Positions 4,665 to 44,096 of a stretch of DNA of 46,245 nt are shown piece by piece. Source of the stretch: an uncultured bacterium (lineage in GTDB: Bacteria > Bacillota > CAZWXO01); contig CAZWXO010000005.1 in assembly GCA_964637885.1 (NCBI GenBank), positions 1 through 46,245 of the forward strand, read 5' to 3'. The position numbers and the translations under genes are program-made. Below the pieces are notes generated by a model. That model saw only the letters and a list, made by a program, of their open reading frames with translations. It had not been told where the DNA came from and ran no database searches. Each line of letters begins with the position of its first letter. The stretch's first letter is position 1.

Positions 4665-7305
4665 GCGGCAAATAGCCAGAGCAGCTGGCGTTTTACTTGT
4701 TATCAGCATCTTGGCCCGATTGGCAGGCTTTGTGCGGGAACAGGCATTGGCGGCTGTTTTTGGCACAAGCGCGGCAACGGATGCCTACCTGATGGCTTTC
4801 ACTCTTCCTAACCTTTTTTTTGTGGTCGTCGGCGGAGCTCTGGCGACGGCCTTTCTGCCTGTTATTACCCAACGTAAGGTCAGCGGGGATGCGGGGGACG
4901 ACAAGCGATTGGCGGCCTCGGTGCTGAATCTGACCTTGGTCGGGATGTTGATATTAGCCCTCATCGGGGTTATTTTTACACCCAGCTTTATTGCGCTTCT
5001 GGCCTATGGCTTTGCTCCGGATCAAATGGCCTTGACGGTTCGTTTGGCGCGGATTTTATTTCCCTGCGCGGTATTGTTGGCTATTTCCGGATTGCTCGGA
5101 GCCTTGCTCAATTCTTACAAAAAGTTTGCTGTCCCGGCCTTTACCTCGATCGCTTTTTCCTTGACTTTGATTGCCGGCATATTTTTGCTGACGCCGACGA
5201 TGGGCGTTGTCGGCTTGGCGTGGGCGACAGTTCTTGCGACGGTGGCGCAGGTGTCGGTACAACTCCCATCCCTGTACCGCAGCGGTTACCGGCACTCGCT
5301 GACGGCCTTTGATTGGCGGGATGAGGGTGTCCGCAAGGTTGGCAAGTTGATGCTTCCGGCGATGCTGGGCACATCCGTGGCGCAGATATATGTCACTGTG
5401 GACCGGATTCTGGCCTCGGGATTGCCGACAGGCAGTATCGCCGCTTTGAACTTTGCAAACAAATTGATGTTTCTGCCCTTTAATCTCTTTGTCATGACCG
5501 TCAGCACCGCCGTCTATCCCTATCTCTCTGAGCATGCGGCCCGCAAAGAATATAAAGAGCTAGGCGAAGCGACCGTATTTGGTCTGGTCCTGATTTCGAT
5601 TTTTACCATCCCGGCCTCAGTCGGGCTGTTTGTGCTGGCTGAGCCTCTTGTCGAGGTGTTGTTTCAGCGGGGTGCTTTTAACGATCACTCGACGGAGATG
5701 ACGGCCTTTGCTTTGCGTTTTTTGGCCTTGGGTCTGTTTGCCCAGGGGGCCTATAATATCGTCAACCGGACATTTTTCGCGATGCAGGACACCATGACAC
5801 CAGTTAAGGTGAGCGTGGTGGTCGTTGTCCTGAATATCTGTTTTAATCTGCTACTGATCGGTCCCCTACAGCATGGGGGTCTGGCATTGGCGAATTCGTT
5901 GGCCTCGATATGTAACCTCGTTTTCATTTATTATCTGCTGCGGCGGCGTTTGCCGCAAATGCCGGGCAAACGCCTAGCCCTTGATTTTGCCAAGCTGACG
6001 CTGGCTTCGGCTCTGATGGGTGGCGCAGTCTATTTTCTACAGTTTGAATATTTGCCGGGATTAATTGTGATGGACGACTTTGCTGGGCAGGCACAGGTTT
6101 TAGGCCTTTCAATTTTCGCAGGAGGGGCGGTCTATCTGTTTTTGATTCTTGCACTGAGGATTCATGAGGTAGAGCTACTGCGACACAAGGTGCACCGTCG
6201 GCTTTTTAAAAGCCCGCCAGGCCAGTCTCGCATTTTTATTTCTGGTTATTATGGATTTGGCAACACTGGCGATGAAGCGGTGTTGGCGGTTTTAGTCCGG
6301 CATCTCAGTCAATTGACCCAGGTTAAAAGAATTTCGGTTTTAGCTGCCAAGGCAGGCAGTACTCTGGAAGGGGTGCAAGTCGTCGGGCGACGCTCTCCCC
6401 TGCGCGTCTTAAAAGCGATTTTGCGTAGCGATGTCCTTATCAGCGGCGGGGGCGGGCTTTTGCAGAATGCGACCAGCAATCGTTCGCTGTGGTATTATCT
6501 TGCGATTATTTCTGTAGCCAAGCTGTCTGGGTGCCGCGTCTTGATTGTGGCCAACGGCATCGGCCCTTTGCGGGGCGACTTTAGTCGCTGGATGGTTGGG
6601 AGAGCGGTCGCCGGGTGCGACTATATCAGCGTTCGCGACGATGTTTCCCGGGAAGATCTGATTGCGATGAAGGTTGCGCCGGACCAGATCCGGCAGGTGG
6701 CTGATCCGGCCTTTTTGTTGCAGCGAGCGGATGTGGTGCCCTTGACACCTGACACTCCGATCGGCGAGAGTGGTGGAGCCTATATTGCAATCGCTTTACG
6801 CTTTTGGAAACGGCTTCCCTTGACAGGAAAATTGATTGCTTTGGTCAGCCATATTCAGCGCCAGACGGGGTATACCGTGTGTTTGGTTCCGATGCAGGAA
6901 CCGGCGGATCGCGAGCTGGCGGAAATTATTCGGGCAGCGGTTCCCGGGGTAGTTGTCACAGCGCCCCAGCTAGGCCCGCGACAAATTGCGGCTGTTTTTG
7001 CCAGTTCCGAGATGACAGTCGCGATGCGTTTACACGGTCTTATTTTTGCCGTTGCGGCCGGAGTGCCGGTCTTGGCGCTGGCCTACGATCCGAAGGTAGC
7101 TGCCCTAGCGGAGCAGACAGCTCAGCCCTGTGTAGCGGATTTAAAAGGGGCGACGGAAGAAGAATTGATGGCGGCTTTTGACCAGGCCTTCCAAAACAGA
7201 GCCGATTCAGCGCAGGCGTTGCATCTTCGCATGCCGGATTTGATGGCCGCTTCCCAGCAGGGGATGGAAGAAATGCAACGAGCTGTGGTGAGTGGAGGTC
7301 AGTAA
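4657..7305 (+). CDS. murJ: MurJ/MviN-family lipid-linked glycan flippase fused to a CsaB-type polysaccharide pyruvyltransferase
   Basis: The N-terminal ~525 aa show MviN signatures (ARLAGFVRE, TDAYLMAFTLPNLF, FANKLMFLP, VLFQRGAF, FFAMQDTMTP). From 6229 the same frame continues RIFISGYYGFGNTGDEA...SGGGGLLQ...SVRD...MRLH...YDPKV, which is CsaB-like. No stop between domains. Alternative start at 4651. Confidence 0.88.
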   Translation: MSERQIARAAGVLLVISILARLAGFVREQALAAVFGTSAATDAYLMAFTLPNLFFVVVGGALATAFLPVITQRKVSGDAGDDKRLAASVLNLTLVGMLILALIGVIFTPSFIALLAYGFAPDQMALTVRLARILFPCAVLLAISGLLGALLNSYKKFAVPAFTSIAFSLTLIAGIFLLTPTMGVVGLAWATVLATVAQVSVQLPSLYRSGYRHSLTAFDWRDEGVRKVGKLMLPAMLGTSVAQIYVTVDRILASGLPTGSIAALNFANKLMFLPFNLFVMTVSTAVYPYLSEHAARKEYKELGEATVFGLVLISIFTIPASVGLFVLAEPLVEVLFQRGAFNDHSTEMTAFALRFLALGLFAQGAYNIVNRTFFAMQDTMTPVKVSVVVVVLNICFNLLLIGPLQHGGLALANSLASICNLVFIYYLLRRRLPQMPGKRLALDFAKLTLASALMGGAVYFLQFEYLPGLIVMDDFAGQAQVLGLSIFAGGAVYLFLILALRIHEVELLRHKVHRRLFKSPPGQSRIFISGYYGFGNTGDEAVLAVLVRHLSQLTQVKRISVLAAKAGSTLEGVQVVGRRSPLRVLKAILRSDVLISGGGGLLQNATSNRSLWYYLAIISVAKLSGCRVLIVANGIGPLRGDFSRWMVGRAVAGCDYISVRDDVSREDLIAMKVAPDQIRQVADPAFLLQRADVVPLTPDTPIGESGGAYIAIALRFWKRLPLTGKLIALVSHIQRQTGYTVCLVPMQEPADRELAEIIRAAVPGVVVTAPQLGPRQIAAVFASSEMTVAMRLHGLIFAVAAGVPVLALAYDPKVAALAEQTAQPCVADLKGATEEELMAAFDQAFQNRADSAQALHLRMPDLMAASQQGMEEMQRAVVSGGQ

Positions 7306-10015: not shown

Positions 10016-10072
10016 TTCCAGCACTGATGGCCGCAAGGCAAAGTCAGGATAGTTAATGAGAGGGTGGTGCGG

Positions 10073-10753
10073 ATGATTCAAGCTTTTAATCTTTCTTCAA
10101 GTTATGGCGGCGTAAATAATTCTTTGACTGATATCAATTTACATATTCATCGCGGGGAGTTTGCCTTTCTTGTTGGACCGAGCGGGGCGGGTAAGTCCAC
10201 CTTGATGAAAATCATTACTCGGGAAGTGGTCCCGACGCGGGGGCAGATGTTTATCAACGGCAAAAGCATTATTCGCCTGCGTAATTCCAAGGTTCCCCAT
10301 CTGCGACGTTCGATAGGGATCGTTTTTCAGGATTTCCGTCTTTTAGAGAACCGCACTGCCATCGACAATGTCAGTTTTGCCTTGCGGGTTGTGGAAACTC
10401 CCAAGCGGGAGATTCACTCCCGGGCGATGGCGGCACTGGAAATGGTTGGCTTGATGGGTAAGGCCCAGTCGTTGCCAAACGAAATGTCCGGAGGAGAGCA
10501 ACAACGGGTGGCGATTGCCCGGGCCATTGTCAACAATCCTCTATTAATCATTGCCGATGAGCCGACGGGGAATTTGGACCCGGATACATCTTGGGAAATA
10601 ATCAAACTGTTAGCGGAGATAAATCGCCGCGGGACAACTATTTTTATCGCCACTCATGACAAAGAAATGGTGAATAAAACCAAAAAAAGAGTTATTGCCC
10701 TGGAAAACGGCCGGATTGTCCGGGACGAGCAAAGGGGTGAGTACGAGGCATGA
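10073..10753 (+). CDS. ftsE: Cell-division ABC ATPase FtsE
   Basis: Walker A GPSGAGKST, VFQDFRLL, SGGEQQRV, ADEPTGNLD. Directly followed by ftsX. Confidence 0.95.
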   Translation: MIQAFNLSSSYGGVNNSLTDINLHIHRGEFAFLVGPSGAGKSTLMKIITREVVPTRGQMFINGKSIIRLRNSKVPHLRRSIGIVFQDFRLLENRTAIDNVSFALRVVETPKREIHSRAMAALEMVGLMGKAQSLPNEMSGGEQQRVAIARAIVNNPLLIIADEPTGNLDPDTSWEIIKLLAEINRRGTTIFIATHDKEMVNKTKKRVIALENGRIVRDEQRGEYEA

Positions 10754-11634
10754 GTGTACAATCATGGATTTACTATTTCAAAGAAGCCTTCGGCAGCATC
10801 CGGCGGAATATCTGGATGTCATTTGCTTCGACGGGTGTGGTCACCGTCACCCTGCTGATATTTGGTACCTTCTTGCTGACAGCCACTAATCTGGCAGTGA
10901 TGACTAAAAATTTAGAAACGACAGTCGAGATATCCGTCTTCCTGGACAAGGAGATTAAGGATGACGACCGGGTCCTTTTAGGGCGTGAGCTCGCCGCTAC
11001 CAAACACGTCGAGTCGGCCCGATTTGTCTCCAAGGAAGAGGGACTGAAACAGCTTCAACGTGAAATGGGTTGGGAAGACGAGGATCTTGAGGTTCTCGGG
11101 GCCAACCCGCTACCTGACGCCTACTATGTGCGGGTTGACAGCCCCGCTAATGTGGATTTGCTGGCGCGGACAATCACCCGGATGGAGGGAGTCGAAACCG
11201 TCCGCTATGGCAAAGACATCGTTGAAAAACTATTTCGCCTGACCCAGGCTCTCCGCTACACCGGGATAGTGCTTATTGTTCTGTTGGCTTTCGCAGCGGT
11301 TTTTATAATCGCAAATACGATTAAATTGACAGTGGTAGCCCGGCGCAAAGAGATTTCTATCATGAAAAGTGTGGGAGCGACGAATTGGTTTATTCGCTGG
11401 CCTTTTGCCCTCGAGGGATTGATTCTCGGGCTGGTCGGTAGCCTGATCGCGACTGGGGTGCTTTTTTGGGGATATCAATGGGTCCAGGTCAAGGTCAGCG
11501 AGCTCTTGCCTTTTATAGTGCTGGTTAAGGATGCCAATTTGTTGGGCATGAATTATTGGACAGTCATCAGCTTAGGTTGTTTGTTGGGTCTGGTGGGCAG
11601 CGCTGTGTCAATCAGGCGATATTTGAAAGTTTAG
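10750..11634 (+). CDS. ftsX: Cell-division permease FtsX
   Basis: Four-TM layout with an extracellular loop (NPLP), NTIKLTVVARRKEISIMKSVGATNWFIRWPFALEG. Confidence 0.95.
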   Translation: MSVQSWIYYFKEAFGSIRRNIWMSFASTGVVTVTLLIFGTFLLTATNLAVMTKNLETTVEISVFLDKEIKDDDRVLLGRELAATKHVESARFVSKEEGLKQLQREMGWEDEDLEVLGANPLPDAYYVRVDSPANVDLLARTITRMEGVETVRYGKDIVEKLFRLTQALRYTGIVLIVLLAFAAVFIIANTIKLTVVARRKEISIMKSVGATNWFIRWPFALEGLILGLVGSLIATGVLFWGYQWVQVKVSELLPFIVLVKDANLLGMNYWTVISLGCLLGLVGSAVSIRRYLKV

Positions 11635-11660
11635 TTAGTCTTTTTTATGGGGGTGTAAAG

Positions 11661-12827
11661 GTGGAAAGTATTAAATGTAAAAAATTAGCGCGCGTGGTGA
11701 CAGCTCTTGTCATCGGTGTGACGTTGGTTGCGGGATCGCTTCTAGTGCCGGGCATTGCCGCGGCGGACAATTTAGATGAAAAACAACAAGAGCTAAAAAA
11801 TGTTCAGAAACAGATTGATCAAAAACAAAAGGAACTGAACAAGGTCAAGAGTCAGCAAAGATCCGTTATTAACCAGTTGAACTCAGCGGAAACAAAGATG
11901 CGTACGGCGGAAAAGGATATCAAGACCATCGACTCCAAACTAGGAACGACCAAGCACACGATAGCGTCGACAAAAAAGGCGCTGGAGGAGACGACTAAAG
12001 AGCTGGAGCACACCCAGAAAGTGATGTCGACCCGTATCGAGAATATTTATATGACAGGGAAAGTCAGCTATCTGGAAGTGTTGGTCAATTCTGTCACCTT
12101 TGCTGATTTTCTCGATCGGATGGATATGATTCGGGAGATCTCCCGTCAGGATGTCGAAGTTTTTAAGGAAGTCCGGGCCAAAAAAATTGCCATTCAAAAG
12201 CAAAAGGCTGTACTGGAGGCCGAAGAAGAAAATCTGTCCAACTTGCTCCACGATCAACTGGAAAAGAAATTGGAATATGCCCAAACCGCCGAAGAGCGGG
12301 AAAAAGTCCTGAAACAGATTAACAGTGAGAAAAAGAAGCTCGAAGCGGCTCTGGATGAGATGGAACGCATCGCTCAACAGATGAATTCGACCATCGTGGC
12401 CTTGATGAAGGAAAATGGCATCAGCTCCGAGCAGTCCTATTCCGGCGGGGCGATGCTCAAGCCCGTCAATGGCAGGCTTTCCTCGCCGTACGGCTACCGG
12501 ATTCATCCGATTTTGAAGACCAAGAAATTCCATTCCGGAATTGATCTGGCGGCATCGTCAGGGACGCCGATTAAGGCTGCTAATGATGGCAAAGTCATCA
12601 AATCCGGCTGGAGCAGCGGCTATGGCAACACTGTTATTATTGATCATGGCGGCGGCATCACAACCTTGTATGCCCACGCCTCGGTGCTCAATTGCAAGGT
12701 GGGAGAATGGGTAAGCCGCGGGCAAACTATCGCCAAGGTCGGAAGCACGGGAATGTCGACCGGGCCTCACTTGCATTTTGAAGTTCGGATTAACGGCAAG
12801 ACCCAAAATCCGCAAAACTATATTTAA
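11661..12827 (+). CDS. EnvC/CwlO-like coiled-coil protein with C-terminal M23 peptidase domain
   Basis: Signal peptide, long coiled coil, then HSGIDLAA (HxxxD) and GPHLHFEV (HxH). Follows ftsEX. GTG start at 11661 chosen from the upstream GGGG RBS. Confidence 0.88.
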   Translation: MESIKCKKLARVVTALVIGVTLVAGSLLVPGIAAADNLDEKQQELKNVQKQIDQKQKELNKVKSQQRSVINQLNSAETKMRTAEKDIKTIDSKLGTTKHTIASTKKALEETTKELEHTQKVMSTRIENIYMTGKVSYLEVLVNSVTFADFLDRMDMIREISRQDVEVFKEVRAKKIAIQKQKAVLEAEEENLSNLLHDQLEKKLEYAQTAEEREKVLKQINSEKKKLEAALDEMERIAQQMNSTIVALMKENGISSEQSYSGGAMLKPVNGRLSSPYGYRIHPILKTKKFHSGIDLAASSGTPIKAANDGKVIKSGWSSGYGNTVIIDHGGGITTLYAHASVLNCKVGEWVSRGQTIAKVGSTGMSTGPHLHFEVRINGKTQNPQNYI

Positions 12828-12848
12828 AGAAAAGAGCAAGCGAGATAC

Positions 12849-14006
12849 ATGTTGATTAAAATATTCGGAAACCGTCACTTGCGACAGACGATGGTAACAG
12901 TCTTGGTGACTTTTGCAGTTACTTCCGCAGGATTTCTGGCTGCATATACTGTCTTTGTTCGCCCGCAACTCCGGGAGGGTGCTGTTGTGCTGGATGTCTT
13001 ACATCGGGTGCAGCGCAGCGCCTTAAACGAGCCAGAGATGGTCCGGCTCAAGCAGGGAGCCATCGACGGCATTATTGCCAGCACCGGTGACCCATATTCA
13101 TATTACCTTCCTCCACGGCGTTATTTGGAGATGGCTCATGAAAACGAGGGCTACTTCGAAGGTGTCGGCATCGAAGTGATGATGGAAAAGGATGGTTTGC
13201 GGGTGATTGCCCCGATTCGGGATACTCCTGCTGACTTAGGGGGGATGCAGCCCAAAGACTTGATCGTTGCTGTGGACGGCACCAGCACGGCTGGAATGAC
13301 TGTCAATCAGGCGATTAGCCGTATTCGCGGACCCGAGGGGACAGAGGTTGACCTTGAAGTCCTCCGCGAGGGGGAGAGCAAGTCCCTGCATTTTCGGTTG
13401 ACCCGCAGCAAAATCCCTATCGAGACAGTTGACGGAGAGATGCTGGAGGATAAAATCGGGTATATTGTCGTCGATAACTTTTCCGAAACCACTGCGGCGG
13501 AGTTTGACGTGATTTACAAGCGCTTACAGGACGAGGGAGCCAGGGGATGGGTTCTGGATCTACGGAATAATCCGGGGGGCTCGGTTCAAAGTTGTGCGGA
13601 GATTGCCCAGCGAATTGTCCCTAAGGGGAGAATAGTTACGGTTCGCTATCGGGATGGATCAGAAAATGTCTATGAGTCTGAGCTTGCTAAACTTGCGATG
13701 CCCTATGTGGTCTTAGTTAACGGAGGTAGCGCCAGCGCCTCGGAAATTTTAACTGGTGCCGTGCAGGACAATCAGGTTGCCCCCATTATCGGAACGACCA
13801 CCTTTGGTAAGGGTGTGGTGCAAACCGTCTCATCCTTGGGTAATGGTGGTGGTCTGATCTTGACTGTGGCCGAATATATGACTCCTAAAGGCAGGAAAAT
13901 ACACGAAAAGGGCATCACACCGGACTTTATTGTCGAGCAGCCAGATGAAGGTGAGGCTGATGTGCAGCTAGAATTTGCTGTTGATAAATTGTTGGAGAGC
14001 TTGTAA
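12849..14006 (+). CDS. S41 C-terminal processing peptidase (CtpA/CtpB family) with PDZ domain
   Basis: GDPYSYY, FEGVGI (PDZ), DLRNNPGG, NGGSASASEI (catalytic Ser) and FGKG (catalytic Lys). Confidence 0.93.
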   Translation: MLIKIFGNRHLRQTMVTVLVTFAVTSAGFLAAYTVFVRPQLREGAVVLDVLHRVQRSALNEPEMVRLKQGAIDGIIASTGDPYSYYLPPRRYLEMAHENEGYFEGVGIEVMMEKDGLRVIAPIRDTPADLGGMQPKDLIVAVDGTSTAGMTVNQAISRIRGPEGTEVDLEVLREGESKSLHFRLTRSKIPIETVDGEMLEDKIGYIVVDNFSETTAAEFDVIYKRLQDEGARGWVLDLRNNPGGSVQSCAEIAQRIVPKGRIVTVRYRDGSENVYESELAKLAMPYVVLVNGGSASASEILTGAVQDNQVAPIIGTTTFGKGVVQTVSSLGNGGGLILTVAEYMTPKGRKIHEKGITPDFIVEQPDEGEADVQLEFAVDKLLESL

Positions 14007-29322: not shown

Positions 29323-30285
29323 ATGGAAGCAAAGCCGAAAATCTTAGTCGTCGATGATCAAAAAACCAATTTGGCTCTTTTGCGCCTGCAGTTAAAAGAA
29401 TACGAGATCAAGGAAGCTCAAACCAGCGGTGAGGCGATGAAGCATTTTGCCAATTGGCAGCCGGATTTGGTCATCATGGACATGCTAATGCCGGGGATGG
29501 ATGGATTCTCATTGTTGTCGGTCTTGCGGAAGTCGGCCAAAGAAGACCGGACCCCGATTATTACTTTGACGGCCCTCGACGCCGTGGAAGATAAGGTCCG
29601 TTGCTTGGATTTGGGGGCGGATGTCTATCTGGCTAAGCCATTTGCAGTGGCGGAACTTAAAGCGATGATTCGCTCCTTGCTGCGCTCTCATGAATATACC
29701 GGCGAGCTTTTGTCACTTAAAGACTTAACTTTAAATTTGGCCGTCAGGCTGGAGGAAGATGACCGCTATTTCGCGGGACATTCCCAGAGGGTGGCTGGGT
29801 ATGCCTATGAGTTGGTTCGGGCGACGACACCCCTCAAGGCGGATCGGGAGCAGGTGCGGATGGCTGCGCTGCTCCACGACATCGGCAAATTCAGCGTCAA
29901 CAACGGGATTTATCATAAAGAGGGCTCTTTGTCGGAGGAAGATTGGGACATCATCAAGGCTCATCCGGTGCGTGGTGGGAAAATCCTAAGCGAATATTCG
30001 GGGTTTTCCACGATTGTCTCGTATGTCAAGCATCATCATGAGCACTGGGACGGAAGTGGTTATCCTGAGGGGCTAACCAAGCTTGCCATTCCTACGGGTG
30101 CAAGAATTATTGGCATTGCCGATGCCTACGATGCGATGCTACATGGCCGCGCGTACCGAGCAGCATTGACCCCTGAAGCGGCGATTGCCGAACTGGAAAA
30201 AGGCAAGGAAACCTTTTGGGATCCAAAGCTTTGTGACACTTTTATCGGTCTTTTTCACGAGGGCAAACTTGCGACAATTGTTTGA
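29323..30285 (+). CDS. REC-HD-GYP c-di-GMP phosphodiesterase (RpfG-like)
   Basis: REC (VVDD, IMDMLMP, KP), then GHSQRV, LHDIGK, HHEHWDGSGYPEGL and ADAYDAM. Confidence 0.9.
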   Translation: MEAKPKILVVDDQKTNLALLRLQLKEYEIKEAQTSGEAMKHFANWQPDLVIMDMLMPGMDGFSLLSVLRKSAKEDRTPIITLTALDAVEDKVRCLDLGADVYLAKPFAVAELKAMIRSLLRSHEYTGELLSLKDLTLNLAVRLEEDDRYFAGHSQRVAGYAYELVRATTPLKADREQVRMAALLHDIGKFSVNNGIYHKEGSLSEEDWDIIKAHPVRGGKILSEYSGFSTIVSYVKHHHEHWDGSGYPEGLTKLAIPTGARIIGIADAYDAMLHGRAYRAALTPEAAIAELEKGKETFWDPKLCDTFIGLFHEGKLATIV

Positions 30286-36190: not shown

Positions 36191-36841
36191 ATGCAGCAGT
36201 TATTTACTGAAGACGAGAGCGATGTCCTGCGGGAAATTATGAATTTGCATATCGGCGAAGCTGCCGCTATCTTATCAGAAATGGTCGACCGGCGGATTGT
36301 TCTTGCGGTACCGGAAATAAAACTGATTCGCCTCGGTCAGAATGCCAATGAAGTGCGGGAAGGCCTGCGAGATGTCTTTGATGGTCAGGTAGTCTCCTCC
36401 TCGTTAAGCTTTGGGGATGATTTTTCCGGCCGGGCCTACTTTGTCTTTCCAAGTCGGCAGGCGCGGTCGCTAGTGGCGCTTTGCCTGGGACAATCACCAG
36501 CCGAAGCGCCAGTAAATGCCGATTTGCCCTTTATGGACGATGATGTGGATGTGGTACGCGAGATTGGCAATGTCATTCTCAATTCGATTATCGGTGGTTT
36601 CTCAAATATTTTAGAACTGCGGCTCAATTACTCTCTTCCCGAGGTCGAGGTGTTTGATTTTAATTCCGCGGAAAACACCAGTCATAACTTGACTGGAATG
36701 CATCTCCTGATTATCAGAGCAAGCTTTCTGGTGGAGAAGGATACAGTCGAAGGAGCGGTTTTGATTGTTTTTAGCCTGCGCAGTATCGAAATGTTAAAAG
36801 CTAAGATGGCGGCTTTGCTTCTGGCAAATTTAGATGGATAG
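36191..36841 (+). CDS. CheC-family aspartyl-phosphate phosphatase
   Basis: Two D-x3-E-x2-N motifs (DVLREIMN; DVVREIGN) with downstream Pro residues. Confidence 0.85.
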   Translation: MQQLFTEDESDVLREIMNLHIGEAAAILSEMVDRRIVLAVPEIKLIRLGQNANEVREGLRDVFDGQVVSSSLSFGDDFSGRAYFVFPSRQARSLVALCLGQSPAEAPVNADLPFMDDDVDVVREIGNVILNSIIGGFSNILELRLNYSLPEVEVFDFNSAENTSHNLTGMHLLIIRASFLVEKDTVEGAVLIVFSLRSIEMLKAKMAALLLANLDG

Positions 36842-38885
36842 GATGCTCGAAGCGGCCTTTAATTTGGCTGATAGTGGGACAATAATCGTCGATGCTGGCT
36901 TGCGGATCGTCTTTTGCAATAAGTGGTTTTCGGATCGGGTAGGAATCGAAGCCGCTCTTTTAAACGGGCAGATTCTCGGCGACGTTTTCCCCAGGTGGCA
37001 GGACCCGGGGCAGCGGGAGGCCTTGCAAAAGGCCTTGGAACATGGTTTGGGCCGCTATCTCTCGGGGGCGCTGCATCCTGGACTCTTTGATATGGCTGTC
37101 GATGAGGGTGGAAAGCGCTATAATGTCGGGATCAAGCCATATTCGACGGACAATCGCACTTTTATTCTGTTGGATATCCATGATAATGCCACGCGCCAGA
37201 ACAGTTCGGCATCGATCAAAAGTTTTATCGGTGAGCTTGAGCAAGAGAATCGACGCAGACGGAGCAGTGAAAAGGTGGCCCGTCGCTTGGCGACCCGTGA
37301 CTCTCTAACAGGTTTGCCAAATCGGCGCGATTTTGAAATTAGTAGCGCAAAGTACATCGATGCTGCTAATCAGGGTGCCGAGATGGCGGCGGTGTTTTTA
37401 ATCGACTTGGATAGTTTAAAGGCAATCAACGAAAAAGACGGACACCACGCTGGGGATCAGGTGTTGGTGGAAATGGCCTCGAGAATTCAAAATTTTGCAG
37501 CTGACCGAGGATCTGTCGCCAGGTATGGCGGTGATGAATTTGCCATGTGTCTTCCTGGCCTTTCCAAGGTCGCAGATATTGTCGCGGAGCTGGATATCTT
37601 GATGGAGACAATCCGCCGTCCTTGTAAGTTTTGCGACGAGAATCACGTCGTAACAGCAAGTGTCGGCGTATCTCTTTGTCCGGTTGACGGGGTTGATTTG
37701 GTGCATCTCACGCAGCTGGCGGATGTGGCAATGCGTGGCGTGAAATACTCGGGGGGAGATAACTTTAGTTTTTATAGCCCTGCTTTGACAGAGCTGGTTC
37801 AGGAAATGGGAGCCCGTCGGGCCGCAGAACTGGCCCGAGAGGAAACCGAGTCCAAATACTATAATCTTTTTCACATTATGCCGGATGGGTTTCTATATTT
37901 AAAACTTCTCTTTGACCAATCGATGCGTATCGTCGACGGGGTGGTTATCGAGGTCAACGAGGCTTTCGAGCGGCAAGCAGGCGTGACCAAGGAACAAATT
38001 TTAGGTCAAAAAACCTCCATTTTGAATCAGATGCACAATCAGGCATCCTGGGATTTGAACAAGATGTACGATGATATTGTCGTCCACCACAAGCAACCGC
38101 GTTTTGAGGTGATGAGCAGTAGCGGCAAACACTTTATATCTCTTAGCTTTCATGTGCCCTTCCCTGGGTATATGGCGGTGCTTGCCACGGATATGCATAA
38201 ATCAGTTTTTGCAACATCTTCAGATACAGCAGGCAACGGAGCGACCGATACTCGTCTATGGGACGTTGTTCTGGGTGTGGCCGTTTATCTACAGAAAGTT
38301 ATGGCAGAGTTAGGGCAGAGCAAGTTTGCTCAATGTTGCCCAAGTGAGTTTTCTCAAATTGCCGCTGCCGCTTGCGCCACTTCGGAAACGTTGCAAACGG
38401 TAGCTGGCTTCAAGTCCGATGCACTTGAAATGCGGGAGGTCAACTCCGAACTTTTACTGGAAGTGATGCTGACAGATGCCGAGGAGCTTTTGCAGCAGTC
38501 GGGAAAATGCTTGGTTAGGCAGGGGGAAGAATCTTTGCCGCTGGTTTGCTGTTGTTCGGAAATAGTCGGGGATGTTTTTAGCCAGCTATTGCGTCTATTC
38601 CTCGATGGAAGCATCAATGGCCAGGAAGATATAATACTGGGAGCATATGTCGAAGAGAACATTGTTAAAATTCAGTTTTGCTCAGCTACCGGCAAGCTGA
38701 AGCTTCCCCCAGGCAATTTTTGGGATACCCAGGAAATTGATACTGCCGAGCCTCATACTCGACTGCGTCAGATCGCTTGGTTGTCTAAGGCTGGGGGAGT
38801 CCTGTTATCAAGAGATACGACAGTGCTCGAGGACTGCCTGACAGTTAGAATGAAAAAAAACTCAGAAATAAAGAGTGAGGTTTAG
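36834..38885 (+). CDS. PAS-GGDEF-PAS diguanylate cyclase with divergent C-terminal domain
   Basis: N-terminal PAS, DSLTGLPNRR, IDLDSLKAIN, ARYGGDEF, a second PAS (EVNEAFERQAG) and about 200 aa of unassigned C-terminus. Confidence 0.85.
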   Translation: MDRMLEAAFNLADSGTIIVDAGLRIVFCNKWFSDRVGIEAALLNGQILGDVFPRWQDPGQREALQKALEHGLGRYLSGALHPGLFDMAVDEGGKRYNVGIKPYSTDNRTFILLDIHDNATRQNSSASIKSFIGELEQENRRRRSSEKVARRLATRDSLTGLPNRRDFEISSAKYIDAANQGAEMAAVFLIDLDSLKAINEKDGHHAGDQVLVEMASRIQNFAADRGSVARYGGDEFAMCLPGLSKVADIVAELDILMETIRRPCKFCDENHVVTASVGVSLCPVDGVDLVHLTQLADVAMRGVKYSGGDNFSFYSPALTELVQEMGARRAAELAREETESKYYNLFHIMPDGFLYLKLLFDQSMRIVDGVVIEVNEAFERQAGVTKEQILGQKTSILNQMHNQASWDLNKMYDDIVVHHKQPRFEVMSSSGKHFISLSFHVPFPGYMAVLATDMHKSVFATSSDTAGNGATDTRLWDVVLGVAVYLQKVMAELGQSKFAQCCPSEFSQIAAAACATSETLQTVAGFKSDALEMREVNSELLLEVMLTDAEELLQQSGKCLVRQGEESLPLVCCCSEIVGDVFSQLLRLFLDGSINGQEDIILGAYVEENIVKIQFCSATGKLKLPPGNFWDTQEIDTAEPHTRLRQIAWLSKAGGVLLSRDTTVLEDCLTVRMKKNSEIKSEV

Positions 38886-38890
38886 CTGGA

Positions 38891-39559
38891 ATGGCTAAAT
38901 TATGGTGGGTAATCTTACTTGCATTTTGCCTGGCAGGAGTTTCCGGCATCGAAGCCGAAGCGGGCAAGCATGTCGAGGAGGAGCCTGTTTTCGTGTGCCG
39001 GCATCTTTCAACGGCAGTCGCGCAAAAAATAACCGGACTTTCTTATCGGAAAGGTTGCCCCGTTGGTTATCAGGATCTGCGGCTCGTAGAGGTCGGCTAT
39101 TGGGATTTTAGTGGCCAGCCACGTCAGGGAGAGCTGATTGTTCATGCGAGTGTTGCCCGGGAAGTGCGAGATATATTCATGGAGCTATATGAACAAAAAT
39201 ATCCTATTGCCAAAATGCGTCTCATTGATGAATATGGCGCCGATGATATGCGGTCGATGGCTGACAATAATTCTTCTGCTTTTAACTATCGGGTTATGAG
39301 CGGGACTTCGGGTAAGCTTTCACGCCATGCCTACGGCGTTGCCATCGATATTAACCCGATTCAAAACCCTTATGTGAAAAACGGCCTCGTCAAACCTGCG
39401 GCAGGCAAAGCTTATCTGGACCGCAGTCAAGTTCAGCCAGGGATGATAACGAAAGATGATGTAGTTTACGACGCCTTCATCCGACGGGGGTGGAGTTGGG
39501 GCGGTGAGTGGAGCAGCCTCAAAGATTATCAGCACTTTGAAAAGCCGATCCCCCGCTAG
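38891..39559 (+). CDS. Secreted M15-family zinc peptidase (D-Ala-D-Ala/L-Ala-D-Glu peptidase-like)
   Basis: Signal peptide, SAFNYR, SRHAYGVAID (SxHxxGxAxD) and DYQHFE motifs. Confidence 0.88.
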   Translation: MAKLWWVILLAFCLAGVSGIEAEAGKHVEEEPVFVCRHLSTAVAQKITGLSYRKGCPVGYQDLRLVEVGYWDFSGQPRQGELIVHASVAREVRDIFMELYEQKYPIAKMRLIDEYGADDMRSMADNNSSAFNYRVMSGTSGKLSRHAYGVAIDINPIQNPYVKNGLVKPAAGKAYLDRSQVQPGMITKDDVVYDAFIRRGWSWGGEWSSLKDYQHFEKPIPR

Positions 39560-41223
39560 TCCTTCCACGCAAAGAGGGTCAATCGGCCTGAATTGAGTAT
39601 TGCGAGCATCGCTCCGCTGATATTGGCGATGACAGCACCCCAGATTGAAGCAACCCCAAAAAATCCGGCCAGCAGGATCAAGGCCTTAATGACTAAGACC
39701 AAGGCGATGTTTTGACGGGCGATCAGAGCCGTTTTTCGGGCCACGGCAATCGCTAAGGAAATGCTGTTTAATTGATTTGTCATTAAGACAACGTCGGCGG
39801 CGTTGATTGCCGTGGCCGACGCCGGGGATCCCATGGCTAAACCAACTTCACACATCGTCAGCGCTGATGCATCGGCAGCACTGGAGCCGACATAGATGAC
39901 GGCCTTTTTGGGATCGGCGTTGCGGGATAGATTAGCGACAAGTTCAATTTTATCCGCTGGCTGTAATTCTGCGTAAACCTCGCCGATCCCAAGGCGAGCG
40001 GCTTGTTCGCCAGCTGATTCGTGATTGCCGCTACTGAGAAGAATTATGCGGGCAATGCCCATGCGGCGCAACTTTTCGATGGCAACCGGAGCATCCTGTC
40101 GGACATACTCCTTTAGAGTAATCACTCCGAGATAGCTTCCGGCAGTGCTGACAAGGAGGTAATGCTCAGCTTCGGGGGGCGAGATAAGCCCGGCAATTTG
40201 ATTTCGGGCGAAGTAATCGAAGCTGCCTGTCATAAACTCAGCCCCCCGAGATGTGACAGTGATTCCGTGGCCGGTATTTTCGACAGATGAATCCCCTTCG
40301 TAAGCGGAAGGGACCTCCCCGAACATTTCCAGCACTCCGGTTGCATAGTTACTTGTCGAGCGGCTCTGTGCGATTGCGGCTGCCTCGATGACAGTTTCAG
40401 CTGAAACGCCGGGGGCAGGAATAATCTGGTCGACACAAAAGGAATCCTTGGTCAGGACGCCCTTACTATCGAAGATTATCTCTCCCGCTCGCGCCAAAGC
40501 CGATAAATAGTTACTCCCTTTAAAGAAGATCTGTCTCCGAGAGGCTAGACCAATGCCGGCAAAGAAAGTAATCGGAATCGCTATAACCAGAGAGCAAGGG
40601 CAGGAAGCGACCAGGATAATCAAAGCGCGGTAGCTCCACACAGCAAAGTCACCCCCCCAAAAAACAGGCGGCAGCAAGGCCACAGCTAAAGCTAAAACGA
40701 TGACAATGGGAGTGTAGTAGCGGGCAAAGCCGGTAATCATTTTTTCTGCCGGGGCTTTGTCGTGGAGGACGCCGCTGATTTGCTCGGGGTACGGATCAGG
40801 TAAGGCGACAATGTCTTGCTTGGATCGGCGGACTGCATTAATTTCCAGCCTCTCTCCGAGCATGAAGAGGAGCATGATCAAGGCTGCCTCCCCATAAGCG
40901 CCTAAAAAAAAGGCACCTATTGAGGTTAGGGTCACGAGGAATTTTTCATCGAAAAATTTTCCATGAAGAATGTTGCGGGCAGCTTTTAACACAATGTCCC
41001 AGCCAGACAAGGCCCAAGCCCCCAAGGCCAGATATTTATCCAGCTGCTCGGGAGCAAGATTGCTTAGGAGTAGCAACAAAAAAAGGATAGCTAGCAAGGA
41101 GCGCGCAACACGGAGGCCTTTTTTTTCAAGCTGACTATCCTCCCACAAAAGCGCAGTGGCTGAGGGAAAAAGTTCACCGCCTGTGCTGTGAATTTTTTTT
41201 TGGTAATTCTCTTCCGAATCCAA
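39556..41223 (-). CDS. Degenerate P1B-type (CadA/ZntA-like) ATPase homologue lacking the actuator domain; probable pseudoenzyme
   Basis: The CadA-like backbone is clear (KAP..ITGFARYYTP, YRAL..LVASCPC, KGSNYL, AEL.PADK, AADVV, QNI), but TGES and the A-domain are absent and DKTGT, HP, TGD and GDGIND are substituted. ORF is uninterrupted. TTG start at 41223 after GGAGGG (alternative ATG at 41244). Confidence 0.85.
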   Translation of the reverse strand: MDSEENYQKKIHSTGGELFPSATALLWEDSQLEKKGLRVARSLLAILFLLLLLSNLAPEQLDKYLALGAWALSGWDIVLKAARNILHGKFFDEKFLVTLTSIGAFFLGAYGEAALIMLLFMLGERLEINAVRRSKQDIVALPDPYPEQISGVLHDKAPAEKMITGFARYYTPIVIVLALAVALLPPVFWGGDFAVWSYRALIILVASCPCSLVIAIPITFFAGIGLASRRQIFFKGSNYLSALARAGEIIFDSKGVLTKDSFCVDQIIPAPGVSAETVIEAAAIAQSRSTSNYATGVLEMFGEVPSAYEGDSSVENTGHGITVTSRGAEFMTGSFDYFARNQIAGLISPPEAEHYLLVSTAGSYLGVITLKEYVRQDAPVAIEKLRRMGIARIILLSSGNHESAGEQAARLGIGEVYAELQPADKIELVANLSRNADPKKAVIYVGSSAADASALTMCEVGLAMGSPASATAINAADVVLMTNQLNSISLAIAVARKTALIARQNIALVLVIKALILLAGFFGVASIWGAVIANISGAMLAILNSGRLTLFAWKD

Positions 41224-41253
41224 ATAAAAATGCCCTCCGAACATAATAATGCT

Positions 41254-42609
41254 TTAATACTTAAGGGCTCTCAGCCAATAATCGGTGATAATGCTTTGGC
41301 CGTAAGTCGTGCCCGGGACGGCCCACCGCGCATTCAACTCCAGCCAGTATGGTTGATTCGAGCGATTGACATAGACAAACCTAGGGCTAAGCAAGGTTTT
41401 GCCAGCTGGAAGGGGCTTGTTTGTCGCATATGCCCATAGATGCTGGATGTGGGCCTCGACGCCTGCCCGGGGAGAAGAAAAGATTGCCCCGTGTTTGCCG
41501 GCTTCAAAGCGCACCTGTTTGGGGTCGGCTCCGTTTAAGGGCTCACGCCCTGTACAGGGGGTGCCGACGGCTCCCAGTCCACAATAATTGTTTGTCCAAG
41601 GCTCGACATCGCCAGTGTACTGAAAATAACCTGTCTCTTTGGCTGCTTGAGCCAGGGCGACATCGCCACGGATGCCATACGCTTTGCCAATTTCAAGGTA
41701 AAGCTGCGCTATATTTGCGGGGATTGGGTATGCCCCTCGGCCGTATCGAGATTGCAGGGTTGGGGTAAGTCGCTTAACCTCGGCGGCAAGCCAGTTGCTT
41801 AGCTGGGTGGCATTGAGCCGAGACTCTCCAAAAATGCTGAAGGTCGCCAAGGTTAATTTTTCGCCGCTTGGCAGGGTGATGACAGGCTGGAATTTTTTGA
41901 GTTCAGCAAGCTGCACCCGAAAGCGGTCAAGCTGAGCCTGACTGTAATTCGCCGGGTCGGCGCTGGCTAAGGTGCGGAGATTAATAATTTTACTGTCGAG
42001 CAATCGGATATTTGTGCCATAAGTCGATAGCGATTGCAACATTTGCTTGTCAGCCAGATTAGTGATTGTCGGAACGACTGGCGCAGCAGGCTCTGGGGTC
42101 ACTGGCTCTGGAGTTATCGGTGCCGGGTTAACGCTCTGAGTCGAGTCAGTAAAGACAGCGTGGCGCTTGCTATTGTCCCAAGAGGCTGTGATCGCCAAGG
42201 CATTAGCCAAGACACGCATCGGAACATAGGTGCGTCCGTCTTTGCCGATGTAAGGCTTTCCAGTCGAAGCATCGGTGGCAACCTTGACCCCTTCGACGAT
42301 TATTTCTACATCCTCTCCCGCAGTAGTGCGGGTGGGGAGGGGGTAATTGAAGTCTTTATAGACAACGGCCTGCAGGCCAGGCTTATTCCAGCTGACCTTA
42401 ACCCCTAAGGCATCGCCAACCATCCGCAAAGGTACATAAACCCTTCCCTGGACAATGATGCCCCGGGTAGCATCCGTTGGGGTAATCGTTTTTCCATTCA
42501 CAATAATCGTGAAATCCTCTTCAAGAGGTAAGGCCAGAGCTGGCCCAGTATTTATTAAAGAAAAAGCAAGCATGAATGTGATCGTTAGAGCTGTATACTT
42601 AGATTTCAT
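41254..42609 (-). CDS. Secreted protein with two copper-amine-oxidase N-terminal (stalk) domains and a C-terminal glucosaminidase (GH73-like) domain
   Basis: Signal peptide, two GRxYVPxR...LG..xxWd modules, a Pro-rich linker, then AQAAKETGYF, NNYCGLGA and F.SPRAGVEAHIQHLWAYA. Confidence 0.82.
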   Translation of the reverse strand: MKSKYTALTITFMLAFSLINTGPALALPLEEDFTIIVNGKTITPTDATRGIIVQGRVYVPLRMVGDALGVKVSWNKPGLQAVVYKDFNYPLPTRTTAGEDVEIIVEGVKVATDASTGKPYIGKDGRTYVPMRVLANALAITASWDNSKRHAVFTDSTQSVNPAPITPEPVTPEPAAPVVPTITNLADKQMLQSLSTYGTNIRLLDSKIINLRTLASADPANYSQAQLDRFRVQLAELKKFQPVITLPSGEKLTLATFSIFGESRLNATQLSNWLAAEVKRLTPTLQSRYGRGAYPIPANIAQLYLEIGKAYGIRGDVALAQAAKETGYFQYTGDVEPWTNNYCGLGAVGTPCTGREPLNGADPKQVRFEAGKHGAIFSSPRAGVEAHIQHLWAYATNKPLPAGKTLLSPRFVYVNRSNQPYWLELNARWAVPGTTYGQSIITDYWLRALKY

Positions 42610-42821: not shown

Positions 42822-44096
42822 TTGAAGGTATTGTTGGTCGAAGACTCAATATCCGTCGGGAAAACACTGGCAGCTGAGTTGTCGGTCTACAACTATGAAA
42901 TAATGGGTCCTGTCGCAACCGGCGAGGAAGCGCTCGCAGTTTGCCGGCGTGAGACTCCGGATGTTGTCTTAATGGATATCGAACTATCCGGTGAGATGGA
43001 CGGAATTGAAGCCGCGCATCGACTTCAAGGCGGGCGACAGATTCCTGTCATCTATTTAACAGGGCGAGTCGAGACATCCACTTTAGAAAAAGCCATTGAG
43101 AGCGGTTCTTCCACCTATCTGATTAAACCAGTGCGGGCAGCCGAGTTGCATGCCAATATTCAGATGACTCTTCGGCTATCAAGTATGCAAAAAGCTTTGC
43201 AGGAGAGTGAATCAAAGTACAAGTATCTGCTGGATAATATTTACGATGGCTACGCATATCACCGTGTGGTGCGAGATTCCCAGGGTGAAGTAGTTAATTT
43301 TGTCATCACAGAAGTCAACGATGCTTTTGTAAAGCTTTTTAAAACCGACCTGCCCAGCTGCCTGGAAAAGCATCTCATCACGTTTTTTCCGGAGATTGCT
43401 GGTGCGGAAATCGACGCCATGACGGCCTTGGCAAACGTAGTCAAGTTCAAAAAGACCTGGCAATTGGCAAAGATTTTTGCCGCCGGACCGGGCCGATGGT
43501 TTTCGTTACAAGCAGCAAGCCCGCAGCCTGACCATTTGGCGATTGTCTTTGCAGACATTACCGAGCGGGTTAAAGCCGAGGAAAATATTCGCTTTCTGGG
43601 TTTTCATGATCCTTTGACTGCTCTGTTCAACCGGGCATTTTTTGAGACGGAGTATGAGAGGCTCGATCAAGAGCGGCAATTGCCCCTGTCCGTTATTTTT
43701 GCCGAGATGAACAATTTAAAATACATCAACGACACTTTCGGACATACTGTCGGCGACGATTGTCTGGTACAGGTGGCGGATATTTTGAAAGACGCCTGCC
43801 GCCGGGAGGATATTGTCTGTCGTTGGGGCGGTGATGAATTTGTGATTTTGCTACCGGAAACGACGAATGATGTCGGCAATAAAATATGTGACCGGATCAG
43901 ACGCCGGTGCCGGCAGATGGTGTGCCCTGGTGCTGATGCTCTCTGCCCCGGGATAGCTATGGGCTGCGCCACTAAGGGAATAGCTCGGCAAAATTCCAAG
44001 GACGTGTTCAAGGAAGCTGAGGCGAGAATGTATTTAGATAAGGCCGCGACGGCCGCGCTGCAGCGTTCAGCGGAAACATTAGACGAAGGAAAATAA
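42822..44096 (+). CDS. REC-PAS-GGDEF diguanylate cyclase response regulator
   Basis: REC (VED, LMDIEL, KP), PAS, HDPLTALFNR and RREDIVCRWGGDEF (RxxD I-site present). TTG start with GAGGTGG RBS. Confidence 0.88.
   Translation: MKVLLVEDSISVGKTLAAELSVYNYEIMGPVATGEEALAVCRRETPDVVLMDIELSGEMDGIEAAHRLQGGRQIPVIYLTGRVETSTLEKAIESGSSTYLIKPVRAAELHANIQMTLRLSSMQKALQESESKYKYLLDNIYDGYAYHRVVRDSQGEVVNFVITEVNDAFVKLFKTDLPSCLEKHLITFFPEIAGAEIDAMTALANVVKFKKTWQLAKIFAAGPGRWFSLQAASPQPDHLAIVFADITERVKAEENIRFLGFHDPLTALFNRAFFETEYERLDQERQLPLSVIFAEMNNLKYINDTFGHTVGDDCLVQVADILKDACRREDIVCRWGGDEFVILLPETTNDVGNKICDRIRRRCRQMVCPGADALCPGIAMGCATKGIARQNSKDVFKEAEARMYLDKAATAALQRSAETLDEGK

Follow-up and report, generated by a model that had tools for sequence, protein, structure and literature searches.

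On the minus strand of a 46,245-nt contig from an uncultured bacterium of the Bacillota lineage CAZWXO01 (GenBank assembly GCA_964637885.1, contig CAZWXO010000005.1, positions 1–46,245; this whole stretch is called the window below), positions 39556–41223 are occupied by a gene for a 555-aa homologue of heavy-metal P1B ATPases, in which the actuator (A) domain is missing and the catalytic motifs are largely altered. The gene evolves like an ordinary working gene. Two features by which a pseudoenzyme is operationally recognised, loss of essential catalytic residues and purifying selection across lineages, were found here, and we consider it probable that the protein is best explained as a selectively maintained “pseudo-pump” of P1B-2 descent, which would not pump and has probably acquired a new role.

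A P1B-type homologue without the actuator domain

The only long minus-strand open reading frame (ORF) of this region spans positions 39556..41244 and encodes 562 aa if counted from ATG. The likely start is, however, the TTG codon at 41223–41221, which has the sequence GGAGGG (41238–41233) 9 nt upstream and gives the product of 555 aa. For the window protein (P0001) the same TTG was chosen by the gene callers of the public collection, and in two homologues of the same architecture, P0002 (contig L001, 10001–11665) and P0003 (contig L002), the TTG start of each gene is preceded by AGGAGG with equal spacing, so that both the ribosome-binding site and the start codon are conserved in all three. 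Based on this spacing, on the public gene calls and on the conserved pair of signals in L001 and L002, the gene was taken as 39556–41223. Its features are as follows.

39556–41223, minus strand: A-domain-less P1B-2 ATPase homologue (pseudo-pump), 555 aa plus stop, TTG start (ORF, Pfam, NCBIfam, match to ZntA, omega, AlphaFold2 model)
41233–41238, minus strand: ribosome-binding site GGAGGG, 9 nt 5' of the TTG
41137–41169, minus strand: N-terminal cytoplasmic motif FPSATALLWED, residues 19–29 (invariant in three members)
40741–40806, minus strand: M2-M3 junction ALPDPYPEQISGVLHDKAPAEK, residues 140–161, in place of the actuator domain of about 95–100 aa (alignments with ZntA and canonical pumps)
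40594–40602, minus strand: CPC of helix M4 (C208-P209-C210), kept (invariant in the three members and in 149 of 149 canonical pumps)
40450–40470, minus strand: degenerate phosphorylation motif DSKGVLT for DKTGTLT, Asp252 kept (alignment, motif audit)
40345–40365, minus strand: SRSTSNY of the N domain replacing E-x-x-S-x-HP, with E286Q and H291S/G (alignment, motif audit)
40264–40272, minus strand: GxG of the N domain (GHG, residues 318–320), kept (alignment, motif audit)
40027–40041, minus strand: LLSSG for L-TGD, Ser397 invariant at the Thr position, Gly and Asp lost (alignment, motif audit)
39949–39951, minus strand: Lys425, the P-domain lysine (motif III of the haloacid dehalogenase, HAD, fold), kept (invariant)
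39871–39888, minus strand: GSSAAD for GDGIND, first Asp and Asn lost, last Asp (D451) kept (alignment, motif audit)
39685–39687, minus strand: Lys513 of M5, counterpart of ZntA K693, kept (ZntA and family alignments)
39616–39624, minus strand: NIS of M6 for DVG, Asn534 invariant at the position of the metal-ligand Asp (ZntA D714; ZntA and family alignments)

Family searches placed the 555-aa protein among P-type ATPases but below the thresholds of the heavy-metal pumps. The Pfam profile PF00702 was matched with 60.4 bits (cut-off 26.4), while in PF00122 (E1-E2_ATPase) only profile positions 104–181 of 181 found a counterpart and positions 1–103 remained unmatched. The nearest NCBIfam models are those of heavy-metal P1B ATPases, yet the score stays under every P1B cut-off (270.7 bits against 346.25 for TIGR01525, 248.6 against 313.5 for TIGR01512 and 247.2 against 1240 for NF033775); the generic P-type ATPase model TIGR01494 was passed with 107.9 bits (cut-off 62.3). 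The best match among sequences of solved structures, registered by phmmer, is ZntA (4umv, E=1e-60), and this match falls into two pieces: residues 40–156 of the query correspond to residues 119–239 of ZntA, and residues 161–555 to residues 338–728. Thus, about 98 residues of ZntA (240–337), which make up its actuator domain, have no counterpart. In the family alignment the canonical relatives have 94 additional residues at the M2-M3 junction, with TGES among them. An earlier note, made from the letters of the window and a list of its ORFs, had described the loss of an A domain of about 110 aa, TGES included, with about 9 residues left at the junction; the alignments bear out this deletion and give about 95–100 residues, replaced by the 8-residue linker QISGVLHD, which joins ALPDPYPE (residues 140–147) to KAPAEK (156–161). 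The segment EQISGVLHD (residues 147–155, 40759–40785) aligns with EVISGCINQ, a strand inside the canonical A domain. The domain may therefore have been removed by two deletions, of about 64 and about 30 residues, around a short remnant, although so short a segment does not decide between this and a single deletion. To see whether an A domain is encoded separately, the canonical domain was used as a tblastn query against the window and contigs L001, L002 and L008, the last of which represents the L001 species in another sample; only the M3 flank of the gene itself was detected.

Besides this deletion, the protein departs from canonical pumps in its catalytic motifs. In the motif audit three family members were compared with 149 mutually diverse canonical representatives, and every column conserved by at least 90% in the canonical set was listed. 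Such columns number 105, of which 60 are unchanged in every member of the family, 38 are changed and 7 are deleted, the latter all belonging to the A domain (T-G-E included) and represented by gaps in all three members. The changed columns are concentrated in the catalytic motifs. They comprise K253, T254, T256 and G260 of DKTGTLTxG; E286, H291 and P292 of the nucleotide-binding E...HP (P292 being kept in two of the three members); G398 and D399 of TGD; D447, G448 and N450 of GDGxND; and further E474, D483 and the metal-ligand D534 with G536 in M6. The phosphorylation motif reads DSKGV, DNKGV and DSTGV in the three members, TGD reads SS(G/S/D), GDGxND reads GSSAAD, GSSAAD and GHNAAD, and in M6 all three have Asn instead of Asp, the following Gly position being occupied by S, G or C. 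Many of the substitutions (V256, D260, Q286, S398, A450, N474 and N534) are the same in all three members and therefore were fixed once and then conserved. Among the kept residues are E93, E112 of M2, CPC 208–210, D252, G255, T258, G318 and G320 of GxG, K425, D451, D477, N505 and K513; Ser397 at the Thr position of TGD is also invariant. The catalytic core typical of the HAD fold has therefore survived in part, with D252, S397, K425 and D451 invariant and Ser or His in place of the first acidic residue of motif IV (D447).

All the replacements on which the earlier note had built its case were recovered: DSKGVLT at 40450–40470, STSNY instead of HP (within SRSTSNY at the canonical S-x-HP position), SSG instead of TGD (within LLSSG at the position of L-TGD), GSSAAD at 39871–39888 and NIS instead of DVG of M6 at 39616–39624. 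The elements it considered as retained, i.e. CPC (208–210), the QNI...K513 helix, the membrane helices and the fold of the P and N domains, are likewise present, together with GHG. Its statement that the motifs are “rewritten” holds for most of their residues but not for D252, G255, T258, S397, K425, D451 and D477, which are invariant. Survival of the HAD core escaped its attention, as did the constraint on the P/N-like module, which is as strong as in real pumps. Out of seven features of P1B-2 ATPases that can be judged from the sequence, six are lacking (A domain, DKTGT, HP, TGD/GDGxND, Asp of M6 and scores above the curated cut-offs), and the one that is present is the eight-helix membrane core (MA, MB, M1–M6) combined with cytosolic P and N domains. 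FPSATALLWED is, on the contrary, a run of 11 consecutive residues, invariant in the three members between variable flanks, that is absent from canonical pumps.

An AlphaFold2 model built from a 26-row alignment (mean predicted local distance difference test, pLDDT, 79.8; predicted template modelling score, pTM, 0.71) contains helices 35–53, 59–86, 93–106, 110–139, 158–189, 193–229 (with a kink at CPC), 486–521 and 527–550 in the expected order and a cytosolic alpha/beta P/N module at residues 232–480. The M2-M3 junction was modelled with lower confidence (pLDDT 55–69). The N-terminal tail 1–33 is predicted to be disordered (pLDDT <50), with a short helix 22–30 over FPSATALLWED, and the outward-facing loops between helices have only 3–6 residues. 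Foldseek returned ZntA (4umw) as the top PDB match with TMq of 0.70, and structures of the Cd/Co pump 7qbz, CopA and ATP7B were also ranked first. Comparison of the model with ZntA, proposed in the earlier note, thus gave the eight transmembrane helices and the P/N fold as preserved parts.

Purifying selection, rarity and descent

Evolutionary rates were estimated by the Nei-Gojobori approach. For the window and L001 copies the proportion of non-synonymous differences (pN) is 0.122 and that of synonymous differences (pS) is 0.709, i.e. saturated, which gives a ratio of the corresponding distances (omega, dN/dS) of about 0.06. For the other two pairs omega is 0.09 and 0.13, so that all pairs fall within 0.06–0.14, while pN/pS varies across pairs from 0.17 to 0.40, with pS saturated. 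All windows of 60 codons, including those spanning the degenerate catalytic motifs, have omega of at most 0.12. In the same pair of genomes dN of the pseudo-pump (0.133) is close to the values for its neighbours KsgA (0.118), RnmV (0.113), the M15_4 peptidase (0.144) and the PAS-GGDEF protein (0.184). The frame is intact over 552–555 codons in three lineages differing at 20–43% of residues, and since omega is at most 0.14 the gene is not a pseudogene. The copies of L001 and L008 differ by 2 synonymous and 2 conservative non-synonymous substitutions, too few to be used. The M2-M3 junction is identical in four independent assemblies obtained from different samples, which excludes an assembly error, a possibility that the earlier note had asked to check. 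Its suggestion that the protein is under selection and not a decaying pseudogene is thus supported by the shared deletion, by omega far below 1 and by these assemblies.

The distribution of constraint between domains was assessed against 816 pairs of canonical pumps with similar overall divergence. Helices M3-M4 are more conserved within the family than in canonical pairs (78–85% identity versus 66%), and the same is true for M5-M6 (0.65–0.68 versus 0.56). The M2-M3 linker is 72–89% identical within the family, versus 57% for the flanking columns in canonical pairs. For the N-like domain (0.45–0.49 versus 0.42) and for the second half of the P-like domain (0.50–0.55 versus 0.55) the two sets are about equal. 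As this constraint approximately equals that in real pumps, the cytosolic module is not drifting but is held by selection, though on a sequence other than theirs.

The family itself is extremely rare: it forms one cluster at 50% identity, confined to one deep-branching uncultured lineage of Bacillota. A word-indexed search of 5.8 billion proteins found two further members of the same length and architecture, P0002 (80% identity, on the 180-kb JGI contig Ga0377235_000190) and P0003 (57% identity, on a 4.3-kb ENA contig), and all other matches were pumps of about 620 aa with about 40% identity and both Pfam domains. These two share the deletion and the motif replacements with the window protein, so that homologues of the kind predicted in the earlier note do exist. 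The name “Cd2+/Zn2+-exporting ATPase” given to P0002 at JGI is almost certainly wrong for a protein that lacks the A domain and the catalytic motifs. Scanning of metagenomes brought one more copy, L008, which has 99.7% DNA identity to L001 and originates from a different sample; hence the family is known from four independent assemblies representing three lineages. An exhaustive HMMER profile search among 1.84 billion representatives clustered at 50% identity revealed a single family representative, P0003 (1045 bits), with the next score being 393, and the other listed hits matched the profile in two or three stretches, i.e. they possess the A domain. No member was found among 185,579 GTDB species genomes, in which only canonical pumps with 36–39% identity were registered. 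One more candidate, L004, matching from residue 20, proved to be an ordinary pump, which is 699 aa long and has an HMA domain.

The three sequences group together in a neighbour-joining tree, and the stem of their clade, 0.286 long, is the longest of its internal branches (median 0.014, 95th percentile 0.064). The identity of the three sequences to diverse representatives is 36–37% over the columns where real pumps share 51%. As judged from these sequences, the family went through a burst of change along its stem and has been conserved since. Midpoint rooting placed the clade outside all canonical sequences, which we regard as a long-branch effect. Of host markers, UvrA shares 96% of its residues with its counterpart in the L001 organism and at most 73% with any other, that of Thermincola potens being the best named one (69%).

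Gene neighbourhood

Two genes adjoin the pseudo-pump in the window.

41254–42609, minus strand: upstream co-oriented gene of a secreted protein with a “stalk” (Cu_amine_oxidN1) and a glucosaminidase domain (Pfam)
38891–39559, plus strand: convergent Peptidase_M15_4 gene (Pfam)

The stop codon of the glucosaminidase gene (41256–41254) is located 30 nt before the pseudo-pump start, and no terminator-like site was found in this gap. The convergent stops of the M15_4 and pseudo-pump genes overlap by 4 nt (39556–39559), likewise in L001 (11662–11665). The order glucosaminidase, pseudo-pump and, facing it, Peptidase_M15_4 is common to all three lineages. As synteny between these related genomes extends over 20 kb or more, the order may be just inherited. 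A wider co-occurrence of the glucosaminidase with the ATPase was considered and rejected, as glucosaminidase orthologues in Desulforamulus and two other genomes have unrelated neighbours. In sequence the window glucosaminidase is nearest (45–48%) to those of Desulforamulus, Desulfotomaculum, Desulforudis and Moorella. As for a canonical P-type ATPase or cadA, which the earlier note had advised to look for, none is encoded in the 46-kb window or in 21 kb around the L001 copy.

Small as this locus is, its genes evolve at very uneven rates. When the window is compared with L002, identity amounts to 92% in the C-terminal 221 residues of the glucosaminidase, 56% in the pseudo-pump and 40% in the PAS-GGDEF protein; the GC content of L002 is 61%, compared with 51% and 49% in the other two. 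In L002 the Peptidase_M15_4 gene beside P0003 (2352–3101, minus strand) is split into ORFs of 98 and 143 aa, possibly by a sequencing frameshift, as the contig name gives about 4x coverage. Genes of second-messenger and phosphorelay proteins lie on both sides of the locus (window 29323–30285, 36191–38885 and 42822–44096; L001 7128–8408 and 12351–15410). They encode a response regulator (RR) with an HD_5 (HD-GYP-like) domain, a CheC/CheX-like protein, a PAS-GGDEF and an RR-GGDEF protein, to which L001 adds a stand-alone receiver and an Hpt protein.

More distant parts of the window contain the yabD-yabE-rnmV-ksgA order, which we take to be the one known from Bacillus subtilis, as well as uvrBAC, ftsEX and envelope polysaccharide genes. 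Genes for FtsE (an ABC ATPase), FtsX, a PcsB-like coiled-coil M23 peptidase and an S41 (CtpA-like) PDZ protease follow each other at 10064–14006 (plus strand), so that a complete FtsEX-hydrolase module is present in the same window as the pseudo-pump. An 884-aa ORF at 4651–7305 (plus strand), surrounded by glycosyltransferase, Wzy_C and WecG/TagA genes, combines a MurJ-type lipid II flippase (residues 33–465) with a polysaccharide pyruvyl transferase (538–814) and looks like an unusual fusion of a flippase with a modifying enzyme.

Possible roles and significance

In P-type ATPases the TGES loop of the A domain drives the transition from E1P to E2P and catalyses dephosphorylation, His and Glu of the N domain bind the adenine nucleotide, and the first Asp of GDGxND holds Mg2+. 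Since the A domain, the N-domain His and Glu and this Asp are gone, the protein should have no Post-Albers cycle, and from its motifs, read together with established P-type enzymology, we infer with some confidence that pumping has been lost. One can assume that the entire actuator domain disappeared in the ancestor of a small uncultured lineage of Bacillota, together with most of the residues for ATP/Mg2+ binding and phosphoryl transfer and the metal-ligand Asp of M6, and that ordinary purifying selection acted afterwards. Without TGES there would be neither rotation from E1P to E2P nor catalysed dephosphorylation, and without the His and Glu of the N domain and the first Asp of GDGxND phosphorylation driven by ATP should fail. 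The protein has retained the eight-helix core with CPC and Lys of M5 and a folded P/N-like module with Asp, Ser, Lys and Asp of the HAD core, and it has gained two strongly conserved cytoplasmic elements, namely the FPSATALLWED tail and the short M2-M3 linker.

What such a protein does can be suggested only tentatively. Our favoured proposal, which falls somewhat short of an even chance, is that the pseudo-pump does not cycle but stays locked in a single E1-like conformation, acting in the membrane as a ligand-binding or regulatory protein, which binds a thiophilic metal or a phosphorylated ligand and signals by protein-protein contacts through its new cytoplasmic surfaces, moving no ions. A role of this kind is favoured because all domains are constrained, the tail and the linker are highly conserved, and the HAD core is kept without the ATP site and the phosphatase. 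A more specific and rather unlikely version is that the P-type scaffold was turned into a non-cycling membrane receptor or switch, where a phosphoryl group would persist for long on the P-like domain, or a nucleotide or some phosphorylated ligand would be bound there, the CPC cavity or the FPSATALLWED tail would couple this to a membrane or metal cue, and the output would go to the flanking cyclic di-GMP and response-regulator genes or to the wall hydrolases. Long-lived phosphorylation or ligand binding is conceivable since the HAD core persists while the built-in phosphatase and the ATP site are gone.

Several circumstances weigh against a maintained non-pumping protein with such functions. 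Saturation of synonymous sites makes the omega values approximate, and with only three distinct sequences the conservation of single residues, e.g. of the two Cys, is statistically weak. The loss of pumping is deduced from motifs only, and the invariance of the phospho-acceptor Asp and three other residues of the HAD core means that some phosphoryl chemistry may be possible. Substitution of Asp by Asn in M6 makes it less likely that Zn or Cd is still bound at the membrane site. Neither an ArsR/CadC-type regulator nor any other metal gene was found in the window or in the L001 flanks, and no gene of the neighbourhood points to a specific partner.

Among other explanations, a passive or gated conduit, in which the core freed from the catalytic cycle passes a soft metal down its gradient along the CPC path, would account for the membrane helices being the best conserved part (M3-M4 as given above), for the invariance of CPC, Glu112 of M2 and Lys513 of M5 and for the transmembrane fold preserved in the AlphaFold2 model. 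We consider it improbable, as cores of P-type ATPases have no continuous open pore in any normal state, a P/N module constrained as in real pumps would be needless for a bare conduit, and the surroundings contain no metal-related genes. Besides, the ligand Asp of M6 is replaced by Asn in all three members, and in ZntA mutation of this residue (D714) abolishes metal binding (PMC10246665), which argues against metal-based roles in the form proposed by the earlier note. Little probability is also left for a dead paralogue that pairs with a canonical P1B pump from another part of the genome and tunes this active enzyme as its regulatory or dominant partner. Pseudoenzymes generally act in this way, the parts needed for an interface with the paralogue, i.e. 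the complete membrane core and the P/N fold, are kept, and purifying selection affects all domains; but genetic linkage to a canonical P-type ATPase is lacking both in the window and around the L001 copy, and functional P1B heteromers are not an established mechanism as far as we know.

The adjoining genes make one think of cell-wall remodelling, where the pseudo-pump, presumably co-transcribed with the glucosaminidase gene, would act at the membrane to control export, anchoring or activity of the glucosaminidase or of the M15 D-Ala-D-Ala peptidase in loose analogy with FtsEX and its hydrolases. The terminator-free gap of 30 nt and the gene order common to three lineages speak for it. Synteny over at least 20 kb may, however, explain this order by mere inheritance, no ATPase adjoins the orthologous glucosaminidase genes of Desulforamulus and two other genomes, the predicted outward loops of 3–6 residues offer almost no surface to an extracellular enzyme, and a signal sequence of the usual N-terminal type (ALA|LP) is present in the glucosaminidase itself, so that this role looks very improbable. 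The chance that we deal with a recent pseudogene or with an assembly or frameshift artefact at the junction is practically negligible. Its sole support is that decay would also yield domain loss and motif changes, while the frame intact over 552–555 codons in three lineages, omega of at most 0.14, the same junction in four independent assemblies, the conserved ribosome-binding site and start codon and the conservation of the replacement motifs themselves all contradict it.

Among known systems, the best match in both sequence and fold is provided by ZntA/CadA, the P1B-2 ATPases exporting Zn(II), Cd(II) and Pb(II) (4umv/4umw; TIGR01512, TIGR01525). The pseudo-pump has in common with them eight transmembrane helices, CPC of M4, Glu of M2, Lys of M5 and the P and N folds, as well as the phospho-acceptor Asp, Lys of the P domain and GxG of the N domain; its closest relatives are clostridial CadA-like pumps of 620 aa without the N-terminal metal-binding domain (about 40% identity). 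Unlike them, it has no actuator domain and no TGES, reads D(S/N)(K/T)GV, SS(G/S/D) and G(S/H)(S/N)AAD in its motifs, has lost HP with the upstream Glu, carries Asn in M6 and the extra FPSATALLWED tail, and scores below the cut-offs. With generic P-type ATPases of the HAD type it shares Asp of motif I, Ser of motif II, Lys of motif III and one Asp of motif IV. To our knowledge, no P-type ATPase characterised so far lacks the A, P or N domain or has an altered DKTGT, whereas the pseudo-pump has neither the A domain nor the intact motif. Archaeal soluble homologues consisting of P and N domains only (e.g. MJ0968) have no membrane domain and keep the catalytic motifs. Both kinds of proteins thus lack a part of the canonical architecture, but in the pseudo-pump it is the A domain and the motifs that are lost, while the membrane domain is still there. 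Sensors derived from transporters are represented by sugar and amino-acid “transceptors” and by transporter-like co-sensors of two-component systems; with these and other pseudoenzymes the likeness is one of logic only, i.e. a non-catalytic homologue kept by selection and presumably reused for binding or regulation.

Neither an A-domain-less or catalytically dead P-type ATPase nor a signalling or sensor pseudoenzyme derived from such an ATPase was described in the full-text literature searched; subscription literature was outside its scope, and a precedent for the former may exist. A field review of 2023 mentions no such proteins (PMC10654040), and no paper citing the identifiers of the samples or contigs was found.

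The significance of the finding is limited by the rarity of the family (one 50%-identity cluster in 1.84 billion representatives, a single uncultured lineage) and by its role being only predicted. From its sequence, the pseudo-pump should not be filed as a Zn/Cd exporter, and automated exporter labels on proteins of this kind inflate the counts of metal-resistance genes in metagenomes. If the receptor or switch version were true, the pseudo-pump would be the first known case of a signalling protein with a P-type pump as its ancestor. Few membrane machines are understood as well as P-type ATPases, and a maintained member without the A domain and most catalytic residues would show that their scaffold can be reused beyond pumping; as a natural “A-domain-less” construct, it would help to find out how the membrane core and the P/N module work alone.

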